Assembly: GCA_024275415.1 (NCBI GenBank)
Contig: JAJRZD010000042.1
Span: 1 to 32,000, forward strand
From: an archaeon
GTDB lineage: Archaea > Asgardarchaeota > Thorarchaeia > Thorarchaeales > Thorarchaeaceae
Direction of reading: 5' to 3'
Length of the DNA: 32,000 nt
A program made the position numbers and the translations under genes. Below, piece after piece: positions 13,965 to 22,092 of this stretch. The number at the start of each line of letters is the position of its first letter. Position 1 is the first letter of the stretch. The notes under the pieces were generated by a model that was not told the origin of the DNA, ran no database searches, and was given only the letters and a program-made list of their open reading frames with translations.

Positions 13965-15302
13965 TCATCCTGAAGTGACTTTGACTTCATCTAGTACCAA
14001 CGAGGGTGTGATGATGGAGGAATCTTTGCGAACATCATTTCCAACCCTGCTGACTTTCATGAGGAGTTCTCTCATGTTTATTCCAAACAGGGTGTTCTTC
14101 AAAGGATGGACTAGTTCTCCTCGCTCGATGTAGAAGCCCTCTGTAATCGTAGCACTTAGGTCGCCAGTAGTCATGTTGGGACTGTCCCCGGTATTGATGC
14201 AGAGAACTCCCTTATCTACCTCGGATATAAGGTCATCTAGGCTCCCCGACCCTGGTTGGATGATAAAGTTTGATGAAGATATTGATGGTATCCCTGCGTA
14301 GGAGGGACGGCTCGCACTACCCGTATTCGGAACATCATCCTTGAAGGCAGTATATGAATTGTGCAACAATGACTTCAAAACGCCCCGGTCAAGTACCAAC
14401 GTTCGCTGTGTTGGGAAGCCCTCACCATCATAAGGACCGGAGCCGAGTCCTCCCTTTAATAGGGCATCATCGATGATTGAGAGAGATTCCGAGGCAATTT
14501 GATGTCCTAGACAGTCCGAAATATAGGATCGACCGTATTGTACTTCTTCCGCATCTACAGCACCAGCAAACCCTCCTCCGAGAATGATACGTGCTGCAAG
14601 GGGAGCTAATATGACCGGAAGTGTTCCGCCTTCAATGGTCTTCCCTCCAAGATTACGGACTGCTTTCTTCGAAGCTGTAGAACCAACCCATTCGGGATCA
14701 AGGTCTCGTAGATTCCGAGTAGATTGGTATTCGAAGCTCGACGTTCGGGCATCATCGTTTCGGATTAGTGAAGAAGAGGATATCATTACAGATGCGAGAG
14801 AGATAGTCCGAGATATTCCTAGCGAGTTGGCGATGGCAAAGGTTCCTGCGGAAGCAGCCAGTCGTGCCTCGACAGATACCTCATACTGCCCAACTTCCTG
14901 TAAAGAAGCGTCCACCGTTCTGATAATCAGCTCGGCTGCATCTTCCGGTTGTAACCGGGGTATTTCAGGATCAAATAGTCCTTGGACATCTGGATAACGT
15001 CCTTCATAAGATGGTAGGCTCACAAAATCAGGATCGGGTATTGATGCCTTGGCAATCTTGACAGATTTTGTAATTGCCTCAAGATAGTCAGATTCCTGTA
15101 TCGTTGTCACAAAAGCAAAACCGATTTTTTTTCCAACCACTGAGCGGATGCCAACACCAGCATCACGAATATCCTCGGCGGTCTTGATTGAGTTATTTTC
15201 TACATCTATAGAGAAAGACTTGGTTGATGATACAAACACCTCTGCCTGATGAGCCCCAGACTCCAGTGCCTTGCTTACTGCTTTCTCAGCTATGTCCAAC
15301 AC
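13965..15302 (-). CDS. pmbA: TldE/PmbA, non-catalytic subunit
   Basis: GAHQAEVF, GVGIR, PYDGEG-x-PT, LHNSYTA, TG-x-A-x-R, TGDLS; no HExxxH. Start moved to GTG 15302, just after the tldD stop. Confidence 0.9.
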   Translation of the reverse strand: MLDIAEKAVSKALESGAHQAEVFVSSTKSFSIDVENNSIKTAEDIRDAGVGIRSVVGKKIGFAFVTTIQESDYLEAITKSVKIAKASIPDPDFVSLPSYEGRYPDVQGLFDPEIPRLQPEDAAELIIRTVDASLQEVGQYEVSVEARLAASAGTFAIANSLGISRTISLASVMISSSSLIRNDDARTSSFEYQSTRNLRDLDPEWVGSTASKKAVRNLGGKTIEGGTLPVILAPLAARIILGGGFAGAVDAEEVQYGRSYISDCLGHQIASESLSIIDDALLKGGLGSGPYDGEGFPTQRTLVLDRGVLKSLLHNSYTAFKDDVPNTGSASRPSYAGIPSISSSNFIIQPGSGSLDDLISEVDKGVLCINTGDSPNMTTGDLSATITEGFYIERGELVHPLKNTLFGINMRELLMKVSRVGNDVRKDSSIITPSLVLDEVKVTSG

Positions 15303-15312
15303 TATATTCAGT

Positions 15313-16698
15313 CTACACACCTCCAACAGGGACAGATCGTATTCGTACATGGGGACCACCTGTCGTATCAGGCACCGTCTGGCCAAACTTCCCACATGTG
15401 CCCGCTTCGAGTTCAATGTCCTTGGCAACGGCATCGATTTTAGACAAGATGTCCAATATCTGATTTGCAACGGATACATCGCGAACTAGTTGTCCAAGTT
15501 CACCATTGGTGATTAGGTAACCATGATCTGCTTGGAACACAAATTGCCCTTTAGAGGGATTAGTATAGCCGTAGTTGACACCACATAACAGTAGACCAGA
15601 AGCAGTATCTTCTATCAGTTCTACACTACTCCAGTCCCCAGGTTCCATGAAGGTATTGCTCATCCTAGGAATTGGAATGTCCATGTAAGATTGTGCCCTT
15701 GCAGAGCCATTAGGATGCATCCCAAGCCGACTGGATGTTTCGAGACTATGAAGCAGCTCTTCCAGTCGCCCTTCCTGCACCAACGAGTGTTTCGATGCCT
15801 TGGTTCCCTCCCAGTCATACTCAAACGACCCGCGCAGGTGCGGAAGGGTTGGGTCATCGGTGATAGAAAGGTACTCAGGGCCAACTATTTTGCCAACCTT
15901 GTCCTCAAGCACAGTAGAATGAGCAAGCCAATTGTCGGCTTCACATGCATGGCCGAATGCTTCGTGAGTCATTACACCGTTGAGGGCAGGGTCAAGTATG
16001 ACATCAAAGACGCCCCCCTCGACGGCCTTGCTGTCAAGTAATCGTATTGCGTGCTCTGCTGCGGAAATGCCAATATTCAACGAATCCTCTCGCTGGAACA
16101 CCTCGAACCCACCACGCATGCTAACTGATTTGAATCCACTTTGTCGATTAGTCCCATCCTTAGAGGTGGGAGTGGAAATGATGCGAGGGAGAGAATTCTC
16201 GACATAGACACTGGTTCCGAGTGAGTTTGCGATAAAAAGTTCGACCCACCTCTCGCCATATAACGTATGGGTGTTGACTATGCGAGGATCATAATCTCTT
16301 GCTTGGTCATCAATTGCCTTCACATACTTGACCTTGTCCTCGAAGCTGATGTCATGAAAATGTGTCTTTGGCCGGAACTCCGACTTTCCAGAAAAGGATG
16401 GACCTTCGATCTCAAATCGCTCCGAAGTCTTGGAACGTGTCGCCAGCGCCAGTCTTGCCACAGATATTCCTATTTCCCTCATCGCGTCAGGGGACAAGTC
16501 TGTGGTCTGAGCAAATGCCCAAGCACCATCTATGAATGCACGGATACCTGCACCCTTCGACCTCGATGCAATGGAACCCTTGGAAACCCCATTGGTTATT
16601 TCAATCACCGTGGTTGTGGTGTTCACGATACGGATGTCCGCAAATGAAACGCCAGTGTTTAGTGCTGATTCTATAGCAAGTCGAGCAAGATGTTCCAT
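15313..16698 (-). CDS. tldD: TldD metalloprotease
   Basis: FADIR, THEAFGHACEAD (HExxGH), YDWEGT, NGSARAQSY, PIPRMSNT, CGK-x-GQ-x-VP-x3-GGPH. Start moved to ATG 16698. Confidence 0.93.
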   Translation of the reverse strand: MEHLARLAIESALNTGVSFADIRIVNTTTTVIEITNGVSKGSIASRSKGAGIRAFIDGAWAFAQTTDLSPDAMREIGISVARLALATRSKTSERFEIEGPSFSGKSEFRPKTHFHDISFEDKVKYVKAIDDQARDYDPRIVNTHTLYGERWVELFIANSLGTSVYVENSLPRIISTPTSKDGTNRQSGFKSVSMRGGFEVFQREDSLNIGISAAEHAIRLLDSKAVEGGVFDVILDPALNGVMTHEAFGHACEADNWLAHSTVLEDKVGKIVGPEYLSITDDPTLPHLRGSFEYDWEGTKASKHSLVQEGRLEELLHSLETSSRLGMHPNGSARAQSYMDIPIPRMSNTFMEPGDWSSVELIEDTASGLLLCGVNYGYTNPSKGQFVFQADHGYLITNGELGQLVRDVSVANQILDILSKIDAVAKDIELEAGTCGKFGQTVPDTTGGPHVRIRSVPVGGV

Positions 16699-16714
16699 GT
16701 TTATCGCCCATTGA

Positions 16715-16790
16715 TATGACCGCATCGGCAGTTAGGATTATAATTTCTCTTACGACCGCATATTGTTACGACCATATGTGTTCGACGTAA
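16715..16790. repeat. Short direct repeats TTACGACCGCATAT (16750-16763), TTACGACCATAT (16766-16777) and TATGACCGCAT (16715-16725) in the tldD / steadiness-box gene divergent promoter
   Basis: Read directly; an inverted CGTAA also occurs at 16786-16790. Confidence 0.5.
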
Positions 16791-16847: not shown

Positions 16848-18416
16848 TTGAGAGAAGATTCGATTCGACCGTCTTGCCAAGAGTGTGAGTCAAATCGTGC
16901 AACCCACTACTGTGAAGATTGTGGTGCTGTCTTATGTATGGGCTGCCTTGAGAGCAAGGAAACAGAATACCTGCTTTGCAGAGAGTGTCACACGAACCTC
17001 GGCGACATGACAAAGGAAAGCAAGATCAAGTCCTGTCCGGAGTGTGAATCAGAGGAAGTAGGAAAGGGAAGAAAGGTCGAAGAGATATGCCCTCAATGTC
17101 ACTCGTTGCGAATCCAAAATATCGAAGAGAAACGAAGATCAATAGCCCAACAACTGCGTGCTGCAATCAAACAGCTCCATTATGGGCATACAAAGATACG
17201 CGAGTTCAACAACGCTCTGACTGCGGCTAAGAGACTGCTCTATTCACTCAGGATGGCCAATTTTCTCCACTACAAATGGCTTGAGGACAACATTGAGAGC
17301 TTGCAGGAAGAAACGGTGGCATTGAAGAACCGAGTTATGAACCAAGCAGAGATTGTTGCCAAACGGATCGCAGCAGAAACCAAAGGTCTCATCGACTACA
17401 CCAGATGGACCACTGAGCAGTTCCCGTTCATTGAGGGTGTCACAAACAGAGTGATGCAGATTGGTGAACGGTACAAGAGGAATGTGGATGATGCCTTGCA
17501 GACGGCTAGAGCTGCTCTTGAAGATATCACAAAGCAGTTAGAAGGTCTCGATTATTACAGAAAACGATTTGCTGGGTTCTACGAGGTCACGGAATTAGCA
17601 GTGAACGAGCTACCGGTTTGTGCCCTTCCGGATATACGGATTGCAGGAAGCGATTTCCTCCGGAATGTCAAAGCGAATGGGATACTTTACATCACCAATA
17701 GAAGAATCGTATTCATTGCAGAGATTGGTCTGATGCGCAAGAAGATGGAAGTTATCTTCGACTTCCCACTCATGTATTTGACATCTATCGAAGAGGATGG
17801 TAGATTCCGAAAGAGGTTGATACTCCGGATGAAACAGGGAGATATCAAGATAGCATGCAACGAGCAGACCCAGAAGGTACTGCCTGACTATGTGGAGATT
17901 GGAAGAAGGTTTGAGCGGTATCAGCAAACAGATCTCCAACGTGTGAGGAAAATCGAACAGACTGACACGAATATGAGCGATGTGCGAATAAAAATCGAAA
18001 CACTTGTACACTCACTATTGTCGAGTGATAGACATAGAATAGAAACAACACACACTCCAAGAGAGAGCATCCCCTATGAGAGCTACCAAAAATATGATGG
18101 GGCATATCCTCAGAGCGTGCGTCAACCATACGAGTATCCTTCAAGGCAATATGACCATCCTAGTATGAATATAAGAAGAATTGATTATCCAAGGGGTGTG
18201 AATGCCTACCAAAGAGGAGATCTACACGCCCTGCAGCAAGATGCAATGGAGCTAGAAAAAGCCATCACTGAAACAAAGGAGATGTTCAGGGCAGGGAGAA
18301 TAGTGCCGGAGGACTTCATCCGTAGATACAGAGTACTGATGAGAGATGCCTATGTAACTCAGCAGGAGATAAGGAAATTGCAACGAGGAAGCCGAGAGCC
18401 AGACTGGATGTACTAA
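16848..18416 (+). CDS. Multidomain ESCRT-I-like adaptor: B-box-like Zn finger + Zn ribbon - coiled coil - PH/GRAM/GLUE-like - Pro/Tyr linker - steadiness box (Vps23/37-like)
   Basis: TTG start after GGAGG; six CxxC pairs in residues 10-84; GILYITNRRIVF...FPLMYLTSIEE PH-like core; C-terminal ELEKAITETKEMFRAGRIVPEDFIRRYRVLMRDAY resembles the TSG101/Vps23 steadiness box. Adjacent to ESCRT-III. Confidence 0.75.
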   Translation: MREDSIRPSCQECESNRATHYCEDCGAVLCMGCLESKETEYLLCRECHTNLGDMTKESKIKSCPECESEEVGKGRKVEEICPQCHSLRIQNIEEKRRSIAQQLRAAIKQLHYGHTKIREFNNALTAAKRLLYSLRMANFLHYKWLEDNIESLQEETVALKNRVMNQAEIVAKRIAAETKGLIDYTRWTTEQFPFIEGVTNRVMQIGERYKRNVDDALQTARAALEDITKQLEGLDYYRKRFAGFYEVTELAVNELPVCALPDIRIAGSDFLRNVKANGILYITNRRIVFIAEIGLMRKKMEVIFDFPLMYLTSIEEDGRFRKRLILRMKQGDIKIACNEQTQKVLPDYVEIGRRFERYQQTDLQRVRKIEQTDTNMSDVRIKIETLVHSLLSSDRHRIETTHTPRESIPYESYQKYDGAYPQSVRQPYEYPSRQYDHPSMNIRRIDYPRGVNAYQRGDLHALQQDAMELEKAITETKEMFRAGRIVPEDFIRRYRVLMRDAYVTQQEIRKLQRGSREPDWMY

Positions 18417-19039
18417 ACATCCAGTTCTCGTTCTAGAGCCTTGATGGCTTCCTCAAGCTTCTCAGTTTCATTCAACGGTTTTGCAGTCACGGAAACCTCA
18501 GCTGCGACTCCTGCCTCCGCATCAATCTCAGCCATGGCTGCTGCCAAATCTTCTGAGGTGATTTGGGCGTCCCCGGTCGAATCGAATGCCTCTGCGGTTA
18601 TCCCGCTCTCAATCTCGAATTCTTCCAGACGACGAGCAATCTCATCGACATTCTCAACGACTTTTGTGACATCTGTAGCATCGCCCAATAGGCCAAGTAT
18701 CTTCGCAACTTGATTGAGTGCTTGTGACGCCTTTGCGGTCGTTTGTGCTCGGGTCACATGAGCGAGAATCTTTAGGATTTGCAACCGGGATTTGTCTACA
18801 CCCAAGGCGAATCTTCTGAATCGAACCATCTCACTGGCGTATGTCCTATACGCCTCCAAATTGCCGGTCTTCCTAGCTCGAATTGCTCTGTTCTTTGTGT
18901 CGCGCTCTTCCTTCTCCAACTTGTTTCGTTGTCGCTCAAGCTGTTTGGCCAGTATGCGAAGCTGCGATGTCACCTCATTGATATCAGGTTTTTTTCGGCC
19001 CCATGAGAATGCCTTTCTAAATGCACCCAAAATTCTCAC
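18413..19039 (-). CDS. ESCRT-III subunit, Vps2/24/46 class
   Basis: Amphipathic N-terminus (MRILGAFRKAFSWGRKK), basic hairpin, ARKTGNLEAYRTYASEMVRFRR (compare CHMP2 A-x-KGQ-x-DA-x-K-x2-AKDLVR-x-RR), acidic C-half, MIM1-like EKLEEAIKALERE. Confidence 0.9.
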   Translation of the reverse strand: MRILGAFRKAFSWGRKKPDINEVTSQLRILAKQLERQRNKLEKEERDTKNRAIRARKTGNLEAYRTYASEMVRFRRFALGVDKSRLQILKILAHVTRAQTTAKASQALNQVAKILGLLGDATDVTKVVENVDEIARRLEEFEIESGITAEAFDSTGDAQITSEDLAAAMAEIDAEAGVAAEVSVTAKPLNETEKLEEAIKALERELDV

Positions 19040-19213: not shown

Positions 19214-20443
19214 ATGTCATCAGACGGCGCTGACCGAGTCGACCAAGGTTTGAAGAATCTACTAGACAAGGCAATTGACCTTGATAACCGGGGCATGAAA
19301 AAAGAGGCATCCCGCTACTATCTGAAAGCTAGCAAGATTCTGATCAAACTGTCCAACTCGGCATCCCTCCCTTCAGTGCGCAAGCACTACTTGAAACGTG
19401 CTCAAGAGTGTGTTGACCGAGTGCGATTCATCTCGGGTATCAAGAATATCGCAAGTTACTCCGTGGATGGCTTGAGCAGGCCAGTTCCGAAGGCATCGCC
19501 CTCCGCAAGTGTAGGTGACGGAAGGAGGGCCGAGGCTATCACAGAAGAGGACGAGGATGCTAAACGTCTGAAGGACATGATTGCAGATACCATAATTTAC
19601 GAGAAACCAAACGTGAAGATGTCTGAAGTAGCAGGATTAGAGGACGCAAAACAGGCGATTATTGATGCCATAATCGCACCTATGAAACACCCTGAACTCT
19701 TCAAAGGTAAAGCAAGACAGCCATGGAGGGGAATACTCTTCTATGGCCCTGCGGGGTGTGGGAAAACTCTGATTGCAAAAGCGGTTGCGTCAGAGGTGGA
19801 TGCGACATTCTTCAATGTTTCAGCAGCAAATATCGTCAGCAAGTGGCTTGGCGAGTCTGAACGGTTGGTGAAGAATCTGTTCGAGATGGCCCGTATGAAC
19901 CAACCTTCCATCGTGTTCGTCGATGAGTTAGACTCTGTAGGTGGAGCGCGTTCGGGCGATGACGTAGGTGGAGAGCGAAGGCTCAAAACACAACTGCTGA
20001 CTGAGATGCAGGGTCTTGCCAGTGTTTCGGAAGACCGTGTTACAGTAATTGGTGCCACAAACTTGCCGTGGGAAATAGATTTTGCACTGCGCTCCAGATT
20101 TGAGAAAAGAATCTATGTGCCATTACCAAATAGGGAAGCACGCAGAAGAATCTTCGAGATTCATATGGAAGATGTCGATATCGAACCAGATGTAAACTTC
20201 GATGAGTTGTCCGACCTTACGGAAGGCTATAGTGGTAGAGATATCAGCGTAATCTGCAGAGAGGCAGCCATGGAACCAATCAGAGACCTTCAGATCTCTG
20301 GGCGCATGGATGACAATGAGGAGATAATCGAGCTGAGAAAAGTATCGCGAGAGGACTTCCTGAAAGCCATCGAGAATATCAGACCGGCAACCTCTCCTGA
20401 GGATCTGAAGAAGTACACGGACTGGGCGGAGGAGGGTTCCTAG
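19214..20443 (+). CDS. vps4: Vps4 AAA ATPase with N-terminal MIT domain
   Basis: MIT (LLDKAIDLD...EA-x2-YY...YL-x-RA); Walker A GPAGCGKT; pore loop SKWLGESE; Walker B VFVDELD; GATNLPW; C-terminal Vps4 helix. No beta-domain. Confidence 0.95.
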   Translation: MSSDGADRVDQGLKNLLDKAIDLDNRGMKKEASRYYLKASKILIKLSNSASLPSVRKHYLKRAQECVDRVRFISGIKNIASYSVDGLSRPVPKASPSASVGDGRRAEAITEEDEDAKRLKDMIADTIIYEKPNVKMSEVAGLEDAKQAIIDAIIAPMKHPELFKGKARQPWRGILFYGPAGCGKTLIAKAVASEVDATFFNVSAANIVSKWLGESERLVKNLFEMARMNQPSIVFVDELDSVGGARSGDDVGGERRLKTQLLTEMQGLASVSEDRVTVIGATNLPWEIDFALRSRFEKRIYVPLPNREARRRIFEIHMEDVDIEPDVNFDELSDLTEGYSGRDISVICREAAMEPIRDLQISGRMDDNEEIIELRKVSREDFLKAIENIRPATSPEDLKKYTDWAEEGS

Positions 20444-20446
20444 CCT

Positions 20447-21163
20447 GTGGGCATGAAAGAGAAACGCAGGGAGAAGAAGACCAAAACGAAGGGTCAAGTG
20501 CGTCCAATAGAAGTAGAAGAGCCAAAGTCACAAAAAATAGGGGAAACATTGGCAGTGCAGCCATCCGAGGACACTACCAGTGGACATGTAGATGAAATAG
20601 TTGAGATAAAATCACACACTGAAACGGTCGCTAAATCGGAGATTGTTACTGAGCCTGAGATTATCCTTCCTTCATGGGGTGATATCACAGAATCGGAGTG
20701 GATGTATTCGATTCCGCCAAGAAAGGAAGACAGTACGATGTGGGCAGAGGAATGGGGAGATTTCCTTTTGGAGTGGGCACAGTCCAAGTCAGTCCATGTG
20801 ATCTCATTATCAACATTCCTGAAAGAAATCCCATTCAAAGATATGGTACGAAAGGTGGATGCGTTTCGCCTCATCGGGGATTGCCTAGTCAAGAAAGAAG
20901 TGGCTGATTGGCTGGACAGGGGAAGACGACAGCTCCGGATATACTGGAAGCCTCTTGAAGAGTGGGCAGATATCCTATACGAGTGGGCTCTCCAGACTGG
21001 GAACACCTTTCTGGATCTGAAGTCAATCATCATTCAAGAGGCAGATGAGGAGTTTGCCAAGCTTCCTGAGAGGGACATCGGAATCCTGTTGTCTATGCTG
21101 GTAGAGAAGGGGTCGGCGGAGTGGATAGATAAGAAGAAGTTCGCGATAAAGATCCAATTCTAG
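20447..21163 (+). CDS. vps25: ESCRT-II Vps25/EAP20 homologue with charged N-terminal extension
   Basis: WMYSIPP...WAEEWGDFLLEW and IYWKPLEEWADILYEWALQTG match the two Vps25 WH repeats (eukaryotic YSFPP...W and W-x2-PEEW-x3-IY-x-W). GGAGGG RBS at 20431-20436. Confidence 0.88.
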   Translation: MGMKEKRREKKTKTKGQVRPIEVEEPKSQKIGETLAVQPSEDTTSGHVDEIVEIKSHTETVAKSEIVTEPEIILPSWGDITESEWMYSIPPRKEDSTMWAEEWGDFLLEWAQSKSVHVISLSTFLKEIPFKDMVRKVDAFRLIGDCLVKKEVADWLDRGRRQLRIYWKPLEEWADILYEWALQTGNTFLDLKSIIIQEADEEFAKLPERDIGILLSMLVEKGSAEWIDKKKFAIKIQF

Positions 21164-22092
21164 GATGAGTCCAGTATATCACGACGGACTTCTGGGGATG
21201 GTGTGTTCTCTTGAGACGTTCTTGTACGCAGTCCGGGGAAGTAGTAGCGGCCTCCAGTACTGAACCTGATGTCAGCAACAGCCATCCCAACATCTACGAG
21301 GCTGGTCAGAACCTGACGCGCGTGTTCCTCAGACCATTTGAACTGGAGCATGATCTCTTCCACGGATGTGTACCCCTTGATTGCAGCAAGATTGACTACA
21401 TCTGCTTGGTCACGCCTCAGCTCCAGTGGACGAAGCTCGACCACCTTCACACCACCGCGCAATGTCCTAATTCCAGGAATAAGCCCGTGCTCTGATACTC
21501 TATTTACGGCCTCGATGACATCGTTGTAGCTAACGGATCTGAACTGTGGCAAGCGTTTCACGACCTCAACAATGAGTTCTGCAAGGCCCATGATCCCCTT
21601 CGATGCATGGATTGTTGCAACATCTAGCACTGCCAGACCAAGCTGGTCATAATATTCATCCAGCGTCAATCCATTCAGCGACTGTTGGGGTTTCCGGTCG
21701 TATAGGTTCAGAAGGGTGGATGCGTCAGGAAACTGCTCGAAGATATGCGCACCATCAAGGAACGTGGCGACATCTATACCCATTCGTCGTAGCTCGTCTA
21801 TTTGGGTTCTAACCTCGTGTACTAGTGCTTCAGATTCCCGACGGTACGAACCAACATCGACAGCGCCAAGGTCGTATATCTTTTTCAGCTGGTCAAGTGT
21901 CGCGATTGATGCAAATAGTTCTGATTGTATGCTCTCGTACATTTGCCACTGACCTTCTGCTAGATAGACTGCACCAAGGATAGGAAACGCGGATTGACCT
22001 TTAAGGGATAGTATTATGTGGTTTATACGAAGCAGGTTGATGTCCGAATCGTCAGAGATACCATGTTTCAAATCATTCAGAGTTAAGGGCAT
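21160..22092 (-). CDS. Vps28-N-like / Vps22-36 (EAP30) fusion protein
   Basis: C-terminal half DEYYDQLGLAVLDV...KGIMGLAEL...ELRRDQADVVNLA...GYTSVEEI...KWSEEHARQVL...GMAVAD...YYFPGL matches EAP30. Residues 50-128 (YESIQSELFASIATLDQLKKIYDLGAVDVGSY...F...P-x-A) match the Vps28 N-terminus. Confidence 0.85.
   Translation of the reverse strand: MPLTLNDLKHGISDDSDINLLRINHIILSLKGQSAFPILGAVYLAEGQWQMYESIQSELFASIATLDQLKKIYDLGAVDVGSYRRESEALVHEVRTQIDELRRMGIDVATFLDGAHIFEQFPDASTLLNLYDRKPQQSLNGLTLDEYYDQLGLAVLDVATIHASKGIMGLAELIVEVVKRLPQFRSVSYNDVIEAVNRVSEHGLIPGIRTLRGGVKVVELRPLELRRDQADVVNLAAIKGYTSVEEIMLQFKWSEEHARQVLTSLVDVGMAVADIRFSTGGRYYFPGLRTRTSQENTPSPEVRRDILDSS

Follow-up and report, generated by a model that had tools for sequence, protein, structure and literature searches.

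In the ESCRT-I subunit Vps23/TSG101, which is placed upstream of ESCRT-II, an N-terminal ubiquitin-binding UEV domain precedes a Pro-rich disordered linker, a helical stalk belonging to a three-chain coiled coil and a C-terminal steadiness-box hairpin, which packs against a hairpin of the Vps28 type. Vps36/EAP45 of ESCRT-II combines a PH domain of the GLUE/GRAM type, into which NZF zinc fingers are inserted, with an EAP30 winged-helix module that follows it, and binds phosphoinositide and ubiquitin. The ESCRT-III recruiter CdvA of the TACK group (crenarchaeal type) has a PRC barrel, a steadiness-box-related hairpin and a C-terminal ESCRT-III winged-helix-binding peptide, and its gene lies beside ESCRT-III. 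Thor- and Lokiarchaeia are described in the literature as lacking a UEV-Vps23, and Thorarchaeota as seemingly lacking ubiquitin altogether. A further Asgard architecture, Znr_CC_PH_SB, has been defined computationally and called a "likely ESCRT-I component" (Makarova et al. 2024, mBio, PMC10936438).

The protein described here is the Thorarchaeota member of that family (asCOG cog.011556); its architecture was published in 2024, and it belongs to a known family rather than being a new discovery. The gene occupies positions 16848–18416 on the forward strand of a 32,000-nucleotide window, the whole stretch of DNA analysed, and encodes 522 aa from a TTG start. No start codon was found further upstream in this reading frame, and the alignment of orthologues begins at residue 1. 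More than 160 full-length homologues were found, and of those that carry a name nearly all are labelled Thorarchaeota; at 50% identity there are 93 clusters. This is confirmed as a real, conserved gene of a Thorarchaeota-type genome.

The connection to the published cog.011556 entry runs through a relative, gene order and domain order, not through the published sequence itself. The 708-aa Loki-type relative P0135 matches the 522-aa protein at E 7.7e-38, and its locus order (L35Ae, family gene, MetE, Snf7) is that of the Lokiarchaeum GC14_75 entry (Table S2, PMC10936438). Like the published family, the protein has three zinc sites, after which come a helical region, the PH domain and, at the C-terminus, the steadiness box. 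The initial annotation had called for a search for the same architecture and its neighbours across Asgard genomes: family matches are present in 279 of the 301 sampled genomes of the phylum, and a Snf7 gene lies adjacent to the family gene, or one to two genes away, at all six related loci examined, distant relatives included. The Thor form is shorter (∼520 aa, against 620–780 aa) because its linker spans ∼60 aa instead of ∼200 aa.

Domain architecture of the 522-aa protein

Every Pfam match obtained with the 522-aa protein alone fell below its curated cut-off, and an NCBIfam scan of the same sequence returned nothing useful; the domain assignments therefore come from profiles built at the family level and from structure prediction (AF2 full-length model, pLDDT 79). 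These show, in order, an eight-Cys B-box/RING-like module, a four-Cys ribbon, a stalk of three helices, a PH domain closest to the GRAM and GLUE types, a Pro-rich linker predicted to be disordered and a hairpin of the Vps23 type, so that all of the elements listed in the initial annotation are present. Compared with Vps23/TSG101 the hairpin, the linker, the stalk and the proposed placement upstream of ESCRT-II are held in common, whereas the UEV is missing (no match in the 522-aa protein with Pfam), the linker comes after the stalk and not before it, and a PH domain and zinc fingers have been added.

The N-terminal module (16875–16991, forward strand; aa 10–48) would be expected to bind two zinc ions through C10, C13, C22, C25, C30, C33, C44 and C47, followed by H48, and the ribbon (17034–17102, forward strand; aa 63–85) one, through C63, C66, C81 and C84, followed by H85. 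The six CxxC pairs lie exactly where they had been placed, and none of the 12 cysteines varies among 48 relatives, whose identity goes as low as 16%. The family spacing is C-x2-C-x7-11-C-x2-C-x4-C-x2-C-x10-C-x2-C, then a variable spacer and an invariant C-x2-C-x13-19-C-x2-C, with C-x2-C-x8-C-x2-C-x4-C-x2-C-x10-C-x2-C in the first module of the 522-aa protein; judged from the alignment, such fixed spacing and invariance is far beyond chance. The spacing of the eight ligands is that of a B-box, except that the last pair is C-x2-C and not His...His, and ligands 1–6 agree with the B-box type 1 pattern. NZF fingers have ∼10 residues between their Cys pairs, and with the 13–19 residues found in the ribbon an NZF finger at the third zinc site was rejected on spacing.

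The claim of a B-box-like module finds support at the family level. On the 522-aa protein Pfam zf-B_box (PF00643) scores E 6.6e-4 and 20.2 bits, short of the 24.1-bit cut-off, which is reached in P0135 (24.8 bits) and in precomputed matches on P0040, P0047 and P0055; at E < 0.01 the profile matches 14 of 48 relatives, and the ANCHR-like B-box 7 of 48. Searched against the PDB, the zinc-module profile finds both RINGs (RNF4, 7.9e-7; RING2/BMI1 and TRIM21) and B-boxes (TRIM2, 5e-5; TRIM28, MID1 and PML). Zinc itself is absent from the full-length AF2 model, in which the N-terminal blocks have pLDDT 68–88 and the ribbon contains a beta-hairpin at residues 71–80; zinc-ribbon Pfam families match the ribbon segment of several relatives. 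A feature search of the ESM Atlas with aa 1–95 gave no usable match. The published description has three zinc ribbons (PMC10936438), and what is added here is that the first eight cysteines read as a single B-box/RING-like, two-zinc module in these profile matches.

The ∼150-aa coiled coil proposed after the zinc fingers is found as a 155-aa helical region (17121–17588, forward strand) that AF2 builds as three long helices (aa 92–136, 143–177 and 189–247) with short loops between them. The stalk is probably an antiparallel bundle in this model, and would then be intramolecular, unlike the three-chain coiled coil of Vps23/TSG101.

The PH core, first placed at 17610–17915 (aa 255–356), is recovered almost to the residue at aa 256–353 (17613–17906, forward strand; pLDDT 90 when modelled alone), where AF2 builds seven strands followed by a helix at the C-terminal end. 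Structure comparison with Foldseek puts the fold nearest to the GRAM and GLUE classes. Matches of the complete 522-aa model in Foldseek/VIA were mostly to DH-PH proteins, at rmsd up to 25 A; these are attributed to the shared layout of helices followed by a PH domain, and kinship with RhoGEFs was rejected. Both of the basic loops noticed initially are present and conserved, MRKK at residues 296–299 and RFRKR at 319–323. All 34 Thor orthologues have Lys or Arg at the positions of R297, K298, R319, R321, K322 and R323, and 33 of the 34 also at that of K299; K298, K322 and K/R323 are basic in 42–45 of 48 wider relatives. From this conservation we infer that the loops R297-K298-K299 and R319/R321-K322-R323 fit the predicted binding of membranes. 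Two further AF2 helices C-terminal to the PH domain (17934–18020, forward strand; aa 363–371 and 377–391) are conserved in Thor orthologues.

The linker (18033–18215, forward strand; aa 396–456) is rich in Pro, Tyr, Gln and Asn, is predicted to be disordered (pLDDT < 50) and is not conserved in sequence; family members have linkers of 29 to 460 aa, and Pro makes up 8.7% of linkers against 2.3% elsewhere. It had been singled out for its YP/PY strings. All five are present and the Pro/Tyr-rich disorder is kept, but as conserved short motifs the strings fail, given that orthologues carry 0–4 of them and mostly 0–2.

The hairpin expected at 18219–18390 (aa 458–514) is modelled as helices at 459–481 and 487–514 (18222–18389, forward strand; aa 459–514) with block pLDDT 88–94. 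Its family profile reaches yeast Vps23 (2f66_A, E 9.4e-7) and TSG101 (6vme_B, 2.8e-4) in the PDB, with Vps37B at 0.53, and 27 of 42 hairpins from the family have a match to Pfam Vps23_core (best E 2.6e-7), in agreement with the steadiness box first proposed. On the 522-aa protein alone Vps23_core gives E 0.011–0.022, below the cut-off, and a search of the genome with the same profile returned only this protein (E 0.126) and one weaker match.

The ESCRT neighbourhood and a candidate partner

The gene lies next to a set of ESCRT genes. It converges, with a 4-nt ORF overlap, on an ESCRT-III (Snf7-family) gene at 18413–19039 on the reverse strand (Pfam Snf7, E 7e-11), beyond which lie a Vps4 ATPase with MIT, AAA and Vps4_C domains (19214–20443, forward strand; Pfam and NCBIfam matches), a Vps25-like ESCRT-II subunit (20447–21163, forward strand; Pfam ESCRT-II PF05871, E 4e-14) and a Vps22-like ESCRT-II subunit with an N-terminal helical hairpin (21160–21942, reverse strand; EAP30, E 1.6e-14). 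Vps22 probably starts at M51 of a 310-aa ORF that extends to 22092; its orthologues have 245–260 aa, with a highly conserved N-terminal 55 aa. The order target, Snf7, Vps4, Vps25, Vps22 is preserved in Thor genomes at 47–50% identity, and the ESCRT linkage on which the initial annotation depended extends to the distant loci described above.

A search of the genome for canonical Vps28 (PF03997) yielded one weak match only, E 0.45, in the N-terminus of Vps22, and the likeness of that N-terminus to Vps28 draws mainly on an HHpred match published for a different Thor protein. When the C-terminal hairpin and the Vps22 N-terminal hairpin were submitted to complex prediction the score was 0.56 (runs 0.55, 0.58 and 0.56), whereas no control exceeded 0.12, with partner pLDDT of at least 79 and at least 92% of contacts shared between runs. 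Of 80 solved complexes 58 attained the pass mark, as did 2 of 110 mismatched pairs, and scores of 0.60 or below were obtained for only 7 of the 80 solved complexes but for both mismatches that passed; recall by the model of solved Vps23–Vps28 headpieces may have contributed to the score. The result was graded as weak support for docking of the hairpin onto Vps22 in these models. The genome also encodes several further hairpins of this general kind, so that Vps22 is one candidate partner.

There is good reason to regard the 522-aa protein as an upstream, ESCRT-I-like adaptor, a reading we consider probable although its mechanism is inferred; Makarova et al. (2024, PMC10936438) arrived at the same assignment. 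With its two conserved basic loops the PH domain would keep the protein at the surface of an acidic membrane, and the flexible linker would let the C-terminal hairpin pack against another hairpin of the steadiness-box type, for which the conserved N-terminal hairpin of the neighbouring Vps22 is the best candidate in Thorarchaeota. Such pairing could recruit ESCRT-II (Vps22/Vps25), and then ESCRT-III and Vps4. The zinc module, in the position that the ubiquitin-binding UEV holds in Vps23, may serve as a protein-binding or self-association head. The initial annotation had further called the adaptor ubiquitin-independent, which suits the organism because neither ubiquitin, E2 nor a significant UEV was found in its 93%-complete genome (best UEV match E 0.036, elsewhere in the genome). 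In some lineages the family and UEV-Vps23 probably occur together.

Vps36, CdvA and other comparisons

The alternative that fares best, which we hold to be possible though clearly less probable than an ESCRT-I-like adaptor, is that the protein corresponds in function to the N-terminal half of Vps36, a membrane sensor of ESCRT-II and not ESCRT-I, with zinc fingers and a GLUE-type PH domain joined to Vps22 non-covalently here and covalently elsewhere in the family. The latter condition occurs naturally. In three clusters from three samples (P0146, P0335 and P0336) the steadiness box is missing and a layout of B-box, helices and PH domain is fused to a Vps22-type EAP30 module, in an architecture that resembles Vps36; the module is 35% identical to the Vps22 of the window (E 2e-20). 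Pfam Vps36_ESCRT-II matches some family members. Hatano et al. (2022) placed the Asgard Vps22-like protein nearer to Vps22 than to Vps36 and reported Vps22 homodimers. The PH profile also finds the Vps36 GLUE domain as its best PDB match and GLUE domains take Foldseek ranks 2–3, but this likeness to GLUE is marginal, with E at 0.041 and many other PH domains lying within 2 Z units. The fused EAP30 module is itself nearer to Vps22/SNF8 (∼1e-6) than to Vps36 (6.5e-4). In the 522-aa protein the tandem winged-helix EAP30 module is absent by Pfam and a hairpin of the Vps23 (ESCRT-I) type stands C-terminal to the PH domain in its place, and the zinc fingers, of B-box/ribbon type, lie at the N-terminus, where those of Vps36 are NZF fingers inserted in the PH domain. 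This alternative overlaps with the ESCRT-I-like adaptor instead of excluding it, and the natural PH–EAP30 fusions lend support to the link between hairpin and Vps22 on which the adaptor reading draws.

It is less probable, and in our estimate unlikely, that the protein is a division adaptor in the manner of CdvA, with its PH domain on the membrane and direct recruitment of ESCRT-III for cytokinesis or vesicle scission, ESCRT-II being unneeded. Proposed membrane binding, a steadiness-box-related hairpin and a position beside ESCRT-III are common to both proteins; some of the six loci with a nearby Snf7 gene have no Vps22 or Vps25 in the vicinity, and steadiness-box hairpins have a published profile similarity to CdvA. 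Pfam CdvA nevertheless matches just 3 of 42 family hairpins, far fewer than Vps23_core does, a PH domain takes the place of the PRC barrel, and no C-terminal ESCRT-III winged-helix-binding peptide was identified in the 522-aa protein.

The zinc module invites comparison with TRIM proteins (RING, B-box, coiled coil), and it might be supposed that a B-box/RING-like module and a coiled coil drive oligomerisation or ubiquitin-type transfer, as in a self-assembling scaffold or an E3 ligase. The profile does reach RINGs, with RNF4 foremost, together with TRIM B-boxes, and long helices follow the module directly, as in TRIM proteins. The arrangement C-x2-C-x4-C at ligands 3–5 is typical of a B-box rather than a RING, the protein lacks a separate RING as well as SPRY or any other domain seen at TRIM C-termini, and the organism has no detectable ubiquitin system, with neither ubiquitin nor E2 found in the 93%-complete genome; a RING E3 is accordingly unlikely. 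The likeness to TRIM proteins is at the level of domains only, and the proposal, which leaves the ESCRT context and the steadiness box unexplained, appears improbable as a whole.

Least plausible of all is a generic SHOCT-type hairpin in a protein unrelated to ESCRT, for which a SHOCT-like motif (Gly, a hydrophobic residue, then an aromatic 4–5 positions on), similar hairpins in unrelated proteins of the genome and SHOCT matches to 2 of 42 family hairpins (best E 0.0067) might be cited, but which we reject, the initial annotation having named it among the outcomes that would tell against its case, since Vps23_core matches 27 of the 42, Vps23 and TSG101 steadiness boxes are the top PDB matches, SHOCT (PF09851) has no match on the 522-aa protein at E up to 10, and the conserved ESCRT gene neighbourhood and the EAP30 module of the fused variants speak against it.

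Implications for the origin of ESCRT recruitment

It is an open question how the eukaryotic ESCRT pathway first located the membranes and the cargo on which it acts, and genes for ESCRT-I, -II and -III are all present in Asgard archaea. For the role of upstream adaptor, a near-universal Asgard protein with a predicted membrane-binding PH domain and a Vps23-type hairpin is the obvious candidate. The family being published, its value is as a ready test case for the bench and not as a discovery, and the leads offered are a candidate partner in the Vps22 hairpin, natural fusions that back the link, and defined basic-loop residues to mutate.

A more tentative proposal, which we put forward as doubtful, is that eukaryotic Vps36 derives its membrane-sensing half from this archaeal family. 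Most Asgard archaea would, on such a reading, clip a zinc-finger and GLUE-type PH protein to Vps22 by way of two matching helical hairpins, and in a few lineages the two would have been fused and the hairpins lost. If this is true, the steadiness-box headpiece of ESCRT-I and the Vps36 of ESCRT-II would share one ancestral adaptor, and that adaptor would be free of ubiquitin in Thorarchaeota.

A zinc head, a PH domain and a Vps23-type hairpin

The target gene (window 16848..18416, + strand) is intact, encodes 522 aa from a TTG start and is single-copy in its own genome. No start codon lies upstream of TTG 16848 in this frame, and the alignment of orthologues from the first residues of the target backs the TTG start. 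The corresponding database gene call (P0002, 492 aa) covers 94 per cent of the frame from an apparent start at M31 (window 16848–16940), which would cost the protein the first five of its twelve conserved zinc ligands.

The cysteine positions in the initial annotation are exact, and 12/12 cysteines are invariant in 48 relatives down to 16 per cent identity, with a fixed spacing in the family of C-x2-C-x7-11-C-x2-C-x4-C-x2-C-x10-C-x2-C, a variable spacer, and C-x2-C-x13-19-C-x2-C. Pfam zf-B_box stays under its cut-off on the target alone (E 6.6e-4) and matches 14 of the 48 relatives, and an ANCHR-like B-box matches seven. A profile of the zinc region matches RING domains (RNF4 at 7.9e-7, RING2/BMI1 and TRIM21) and, over the first eight cysteines, B-boxes (TRIM2 at 5e-5, TRIM3, TRIM28, MID1 and PML). 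On sequence grounds we read the first eight cysteines as a putative single B-box/RING-like two-zinc module and the remaining four as a ribbon of their own.

The PH core, its basic loops, a Pro/Tyr-rich stretch and the C-terminal hairpin all lie where they were originally placed, although the YP and PY strings singled out within the Pro/Tyr-rich linker are without conservation. This linker (aa 396–456) is disordered (pLDDT <50), and its counterparts in the family vary in length between 29 and 460 aa, with a median of 191; Pro, Asn, Gln, Ser and Tyr are over-represented in them. The stalk and PH domain superpose with ESM Atlas clusters that are mainly Chloroflexota-labelled (295, 354 and 572 aa, the 354-aa cluster being about half archaeal), which suggests that the stalk + PH unit may extend beyond Asgard archaea. 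The 295-aa cluster superposes on target residues 86–356 with a TM of 0.73; in the 572-aa cluster Pfam GRAM is present in 68 per cent of members and Vps36_ESCRT-II in 51 per cent.

The two helices of the hairpin (aa 459–481 and 487–514; block pLDDT 88–94) can be identified as steadiness box-like, as first proposed: Vps23_core is found in 27 of the 42 family hairpins (lowest E 2.6e-7) compared with 3/42 for CdvA and 2/42 for SHOCT, and on the target alone it scores E 0.011–0.022. A profile of the 42 hairpins matches the steadiness box of Vps23 from yeast (2f66_A, E 9.4e-7; 2p22 and 2caz too), TSG101 (2.8e-4) and, weakly, Vps37B (0.53), with the Vps23 alignment running for 55 residues without gaps. 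A Trp stands within the last three residues in 28/34 Thor orthologues, often after Arg or Lys (window 18390–18413), the target tail itself ending D-W-M-Y, and an aromatic residue is among the last four in 25/48 wider-family members. Judging from sequence, this tail may be a short docking motif.

ESCRT gene neighbourhood and spread of the family

In the window the target is followed by a convergent Snf7 gene, whose frame overlaps that of the target by 4 nt, and then by Vps4 (MIT + AAA + Vps4_C), Vps25-like and EAP30/Vps22-like genes. Two tandem TldD/PmbA-family genes (window 13965–16725, − strand) lie directly upstream of the target and divergent from it. The order, including this upstream pair, is kept in two Thor genomes at 47–50 per cent identity (loci L012 and L013). 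A 30 per cent identical relative adjoins two Snf7 genes, and the 708-aa Loki-type relative P0135, which matches the target at E 7.7e-38, lies in the order L35Ae / family gene / MetE / Snf7; this is the order in Lokiarchaeum GC14_75, whose family member sits between L35Ae and MetE/Vps20 (PMC10936438, Table S2). Given the ESCRT gene order in Thor genomes and Snf7 near distant relatives, homologues are linked to ESCRT genes, as the proposed adaptor function would predict.

A word-indexed search returned more than 160 full-length homologues (∼520 aa), the named ones almost all labelled Thorarchaeota and 'hypothetical', and an exhaustive search gave 93 clusters at 50 per cent identity, many of them 600–900 aa long. 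Of the phylum's 301 sampled genomes, 279 match a profile built on 48 diverse members, which covers 87/90 high-quality genomes and 65/70 genera, the true prevalence being somewhat lower because some family-level groups matched weakly, probably partially (E 1e-6 to 1e-12).

Candidate partners of the hairpin

The Vps22-like frame (window 21160–22092, − strand; 310 aa) probably starts at M51 (nt 21942), since its orthologues, which open with a conserved hairpin, are only 245–260 aa long. The first 55 residues from M51 are highly conserved and are the best, though weak, VPS28 match in the genome (E 0.45); residues 1–70 of another Thor Vps22 match the Vps28 N-terminal family (PF03997) with an HHpred probability of 99 (PMC10936438). 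Complex prediction of the target hairpin with this stretch scored 0.56 (runs 0.55, 0.58, 0.56; partner pLDDT at least 79, contact agreement at least 92 per cent) against 0.12 for the best control, a score to be read knowing that the pass mark is reached by 58/80 solved complexes and 2/110 mismatched pairs, that scores up to 0.60 comprise seven of the 80 solved complexes and both passing mismatches, and that the model may have remembered solved Vps23–Vps28 headpieces. The prediction lends weak support to docking of the target hairpin on the Vps22 hairpin.

The Vps22 hairpin is one candidate among several, as the genome holds other hairpins of the same general type. A 195-aa frame on contig C28 (L009 1498–2085, − strand) has N-terminal helices, a long Pro-rich linker and an SB-like hairpin that the family hairpin profile picks up at E 0.096, and could be a third headpiece hairpin or the 'BAR-SB' protein of Makarova et al. 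2024; beside it, a 283-aa frame (L009 2189–3040, − strand) shows small-GTPase motifs by eye after an N-terminal domain. A free-standing 110-aa protein on contig C73 (L005 1366–1698, + strand), in a neighbourhood without ESCRT genes, also ends in an SB-like hairpin (E 9.6e-4). A 393-aa protein about 1.9 kb past the window end (contig C20, L006 523–1704, + strand) has a long coiled coil ending in an SB-type hairpin (E 0.0054), which shows that hairpins of this general type are not ESCRT-specific.

Indirect evidence that the target and Vps22 work together where separate comes from a PH–EAP30 fusion. Three proteins of 601–610 aa, from three clusters and three sequencing runs (P0146, L016 1641–3446; P0336, L018 1185–3002; and P0335; 69–77 per cent identical in the compared C-terminal part), join a B-box, helices and a GLUE-like PH domain to a Vps22-type EAP30 module standing where the linker and steadiness box would be. 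EAP30 is over its cut-off in these variants (E 1.8e-11 to 3.8e-8), and the module is 35 per cent identical to the window Vps22 (E 2e-20) and nearer Vps22/SNF8 (∼1e-6) than Vps36 (6.5e-4). Inspection of the P0146 junction by eye revealed no hairpin. Loci L016 and L018 share an OB_Ssb-like gene and then Snf7 downstream. The architecture is Vps36-like, in archaea, and the fused form was not found in the searched parts of the Makarova et al. 2024 text and supplement.

A described family and its proposed mode of action

The target is an orthologue of 'Znr_CC_PH_SB' (asCOG cog.011556), a family in which Makarova et al. 2024 (PMC10936438) recognise three zinc ribbons ahead of a coiled coil, followed by a PH domain expected to associate with membranes and by a steadiness box. 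They judge it 'likely to be ancestral in Asgardarchaeota' and 'absent in eukaryotes', and propose that it is 'a likely ESCRT-I component'. In a 2023 preprint (10.1101/2023.07.25.550441) cog.011556 is entered under the heading of a 'Steadiness/Vps23 box' family. The initial annotation, in which one protein combines Vps36-like lipid sensing with a Vps23-like headpiece independently of ubiquitin, is supported, though it is essentially the interpretation already published. Ubiquitin (PF00240) and E2 (PF00179) had no match in its 93 per cent complete genome, in agreement with the remark that ubiquitin is seemingly missing from Thorarchaeota (Hatano et al. 2022; PMC9192718), and the best UEV match there was non-significant (E 0.036).

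Beyond the domain identities and genomic ESCRT link, which the data demonstrate, the basic loops of the PH domain would anchor the target on an acidic membrane, from which, across the flexible linker, the Vps23-type hairpin would pack on that of Vps22. A third hairpin protein may join this packing, which would bring in Vps22/Vps25 and next ESCRT-III and Vps4. For the zinc head, the simplest guess is that it binds protein or associates with itself. A full-text literature search found no bench study of Znr_CC_PH_SB, and the family is a good bench target.
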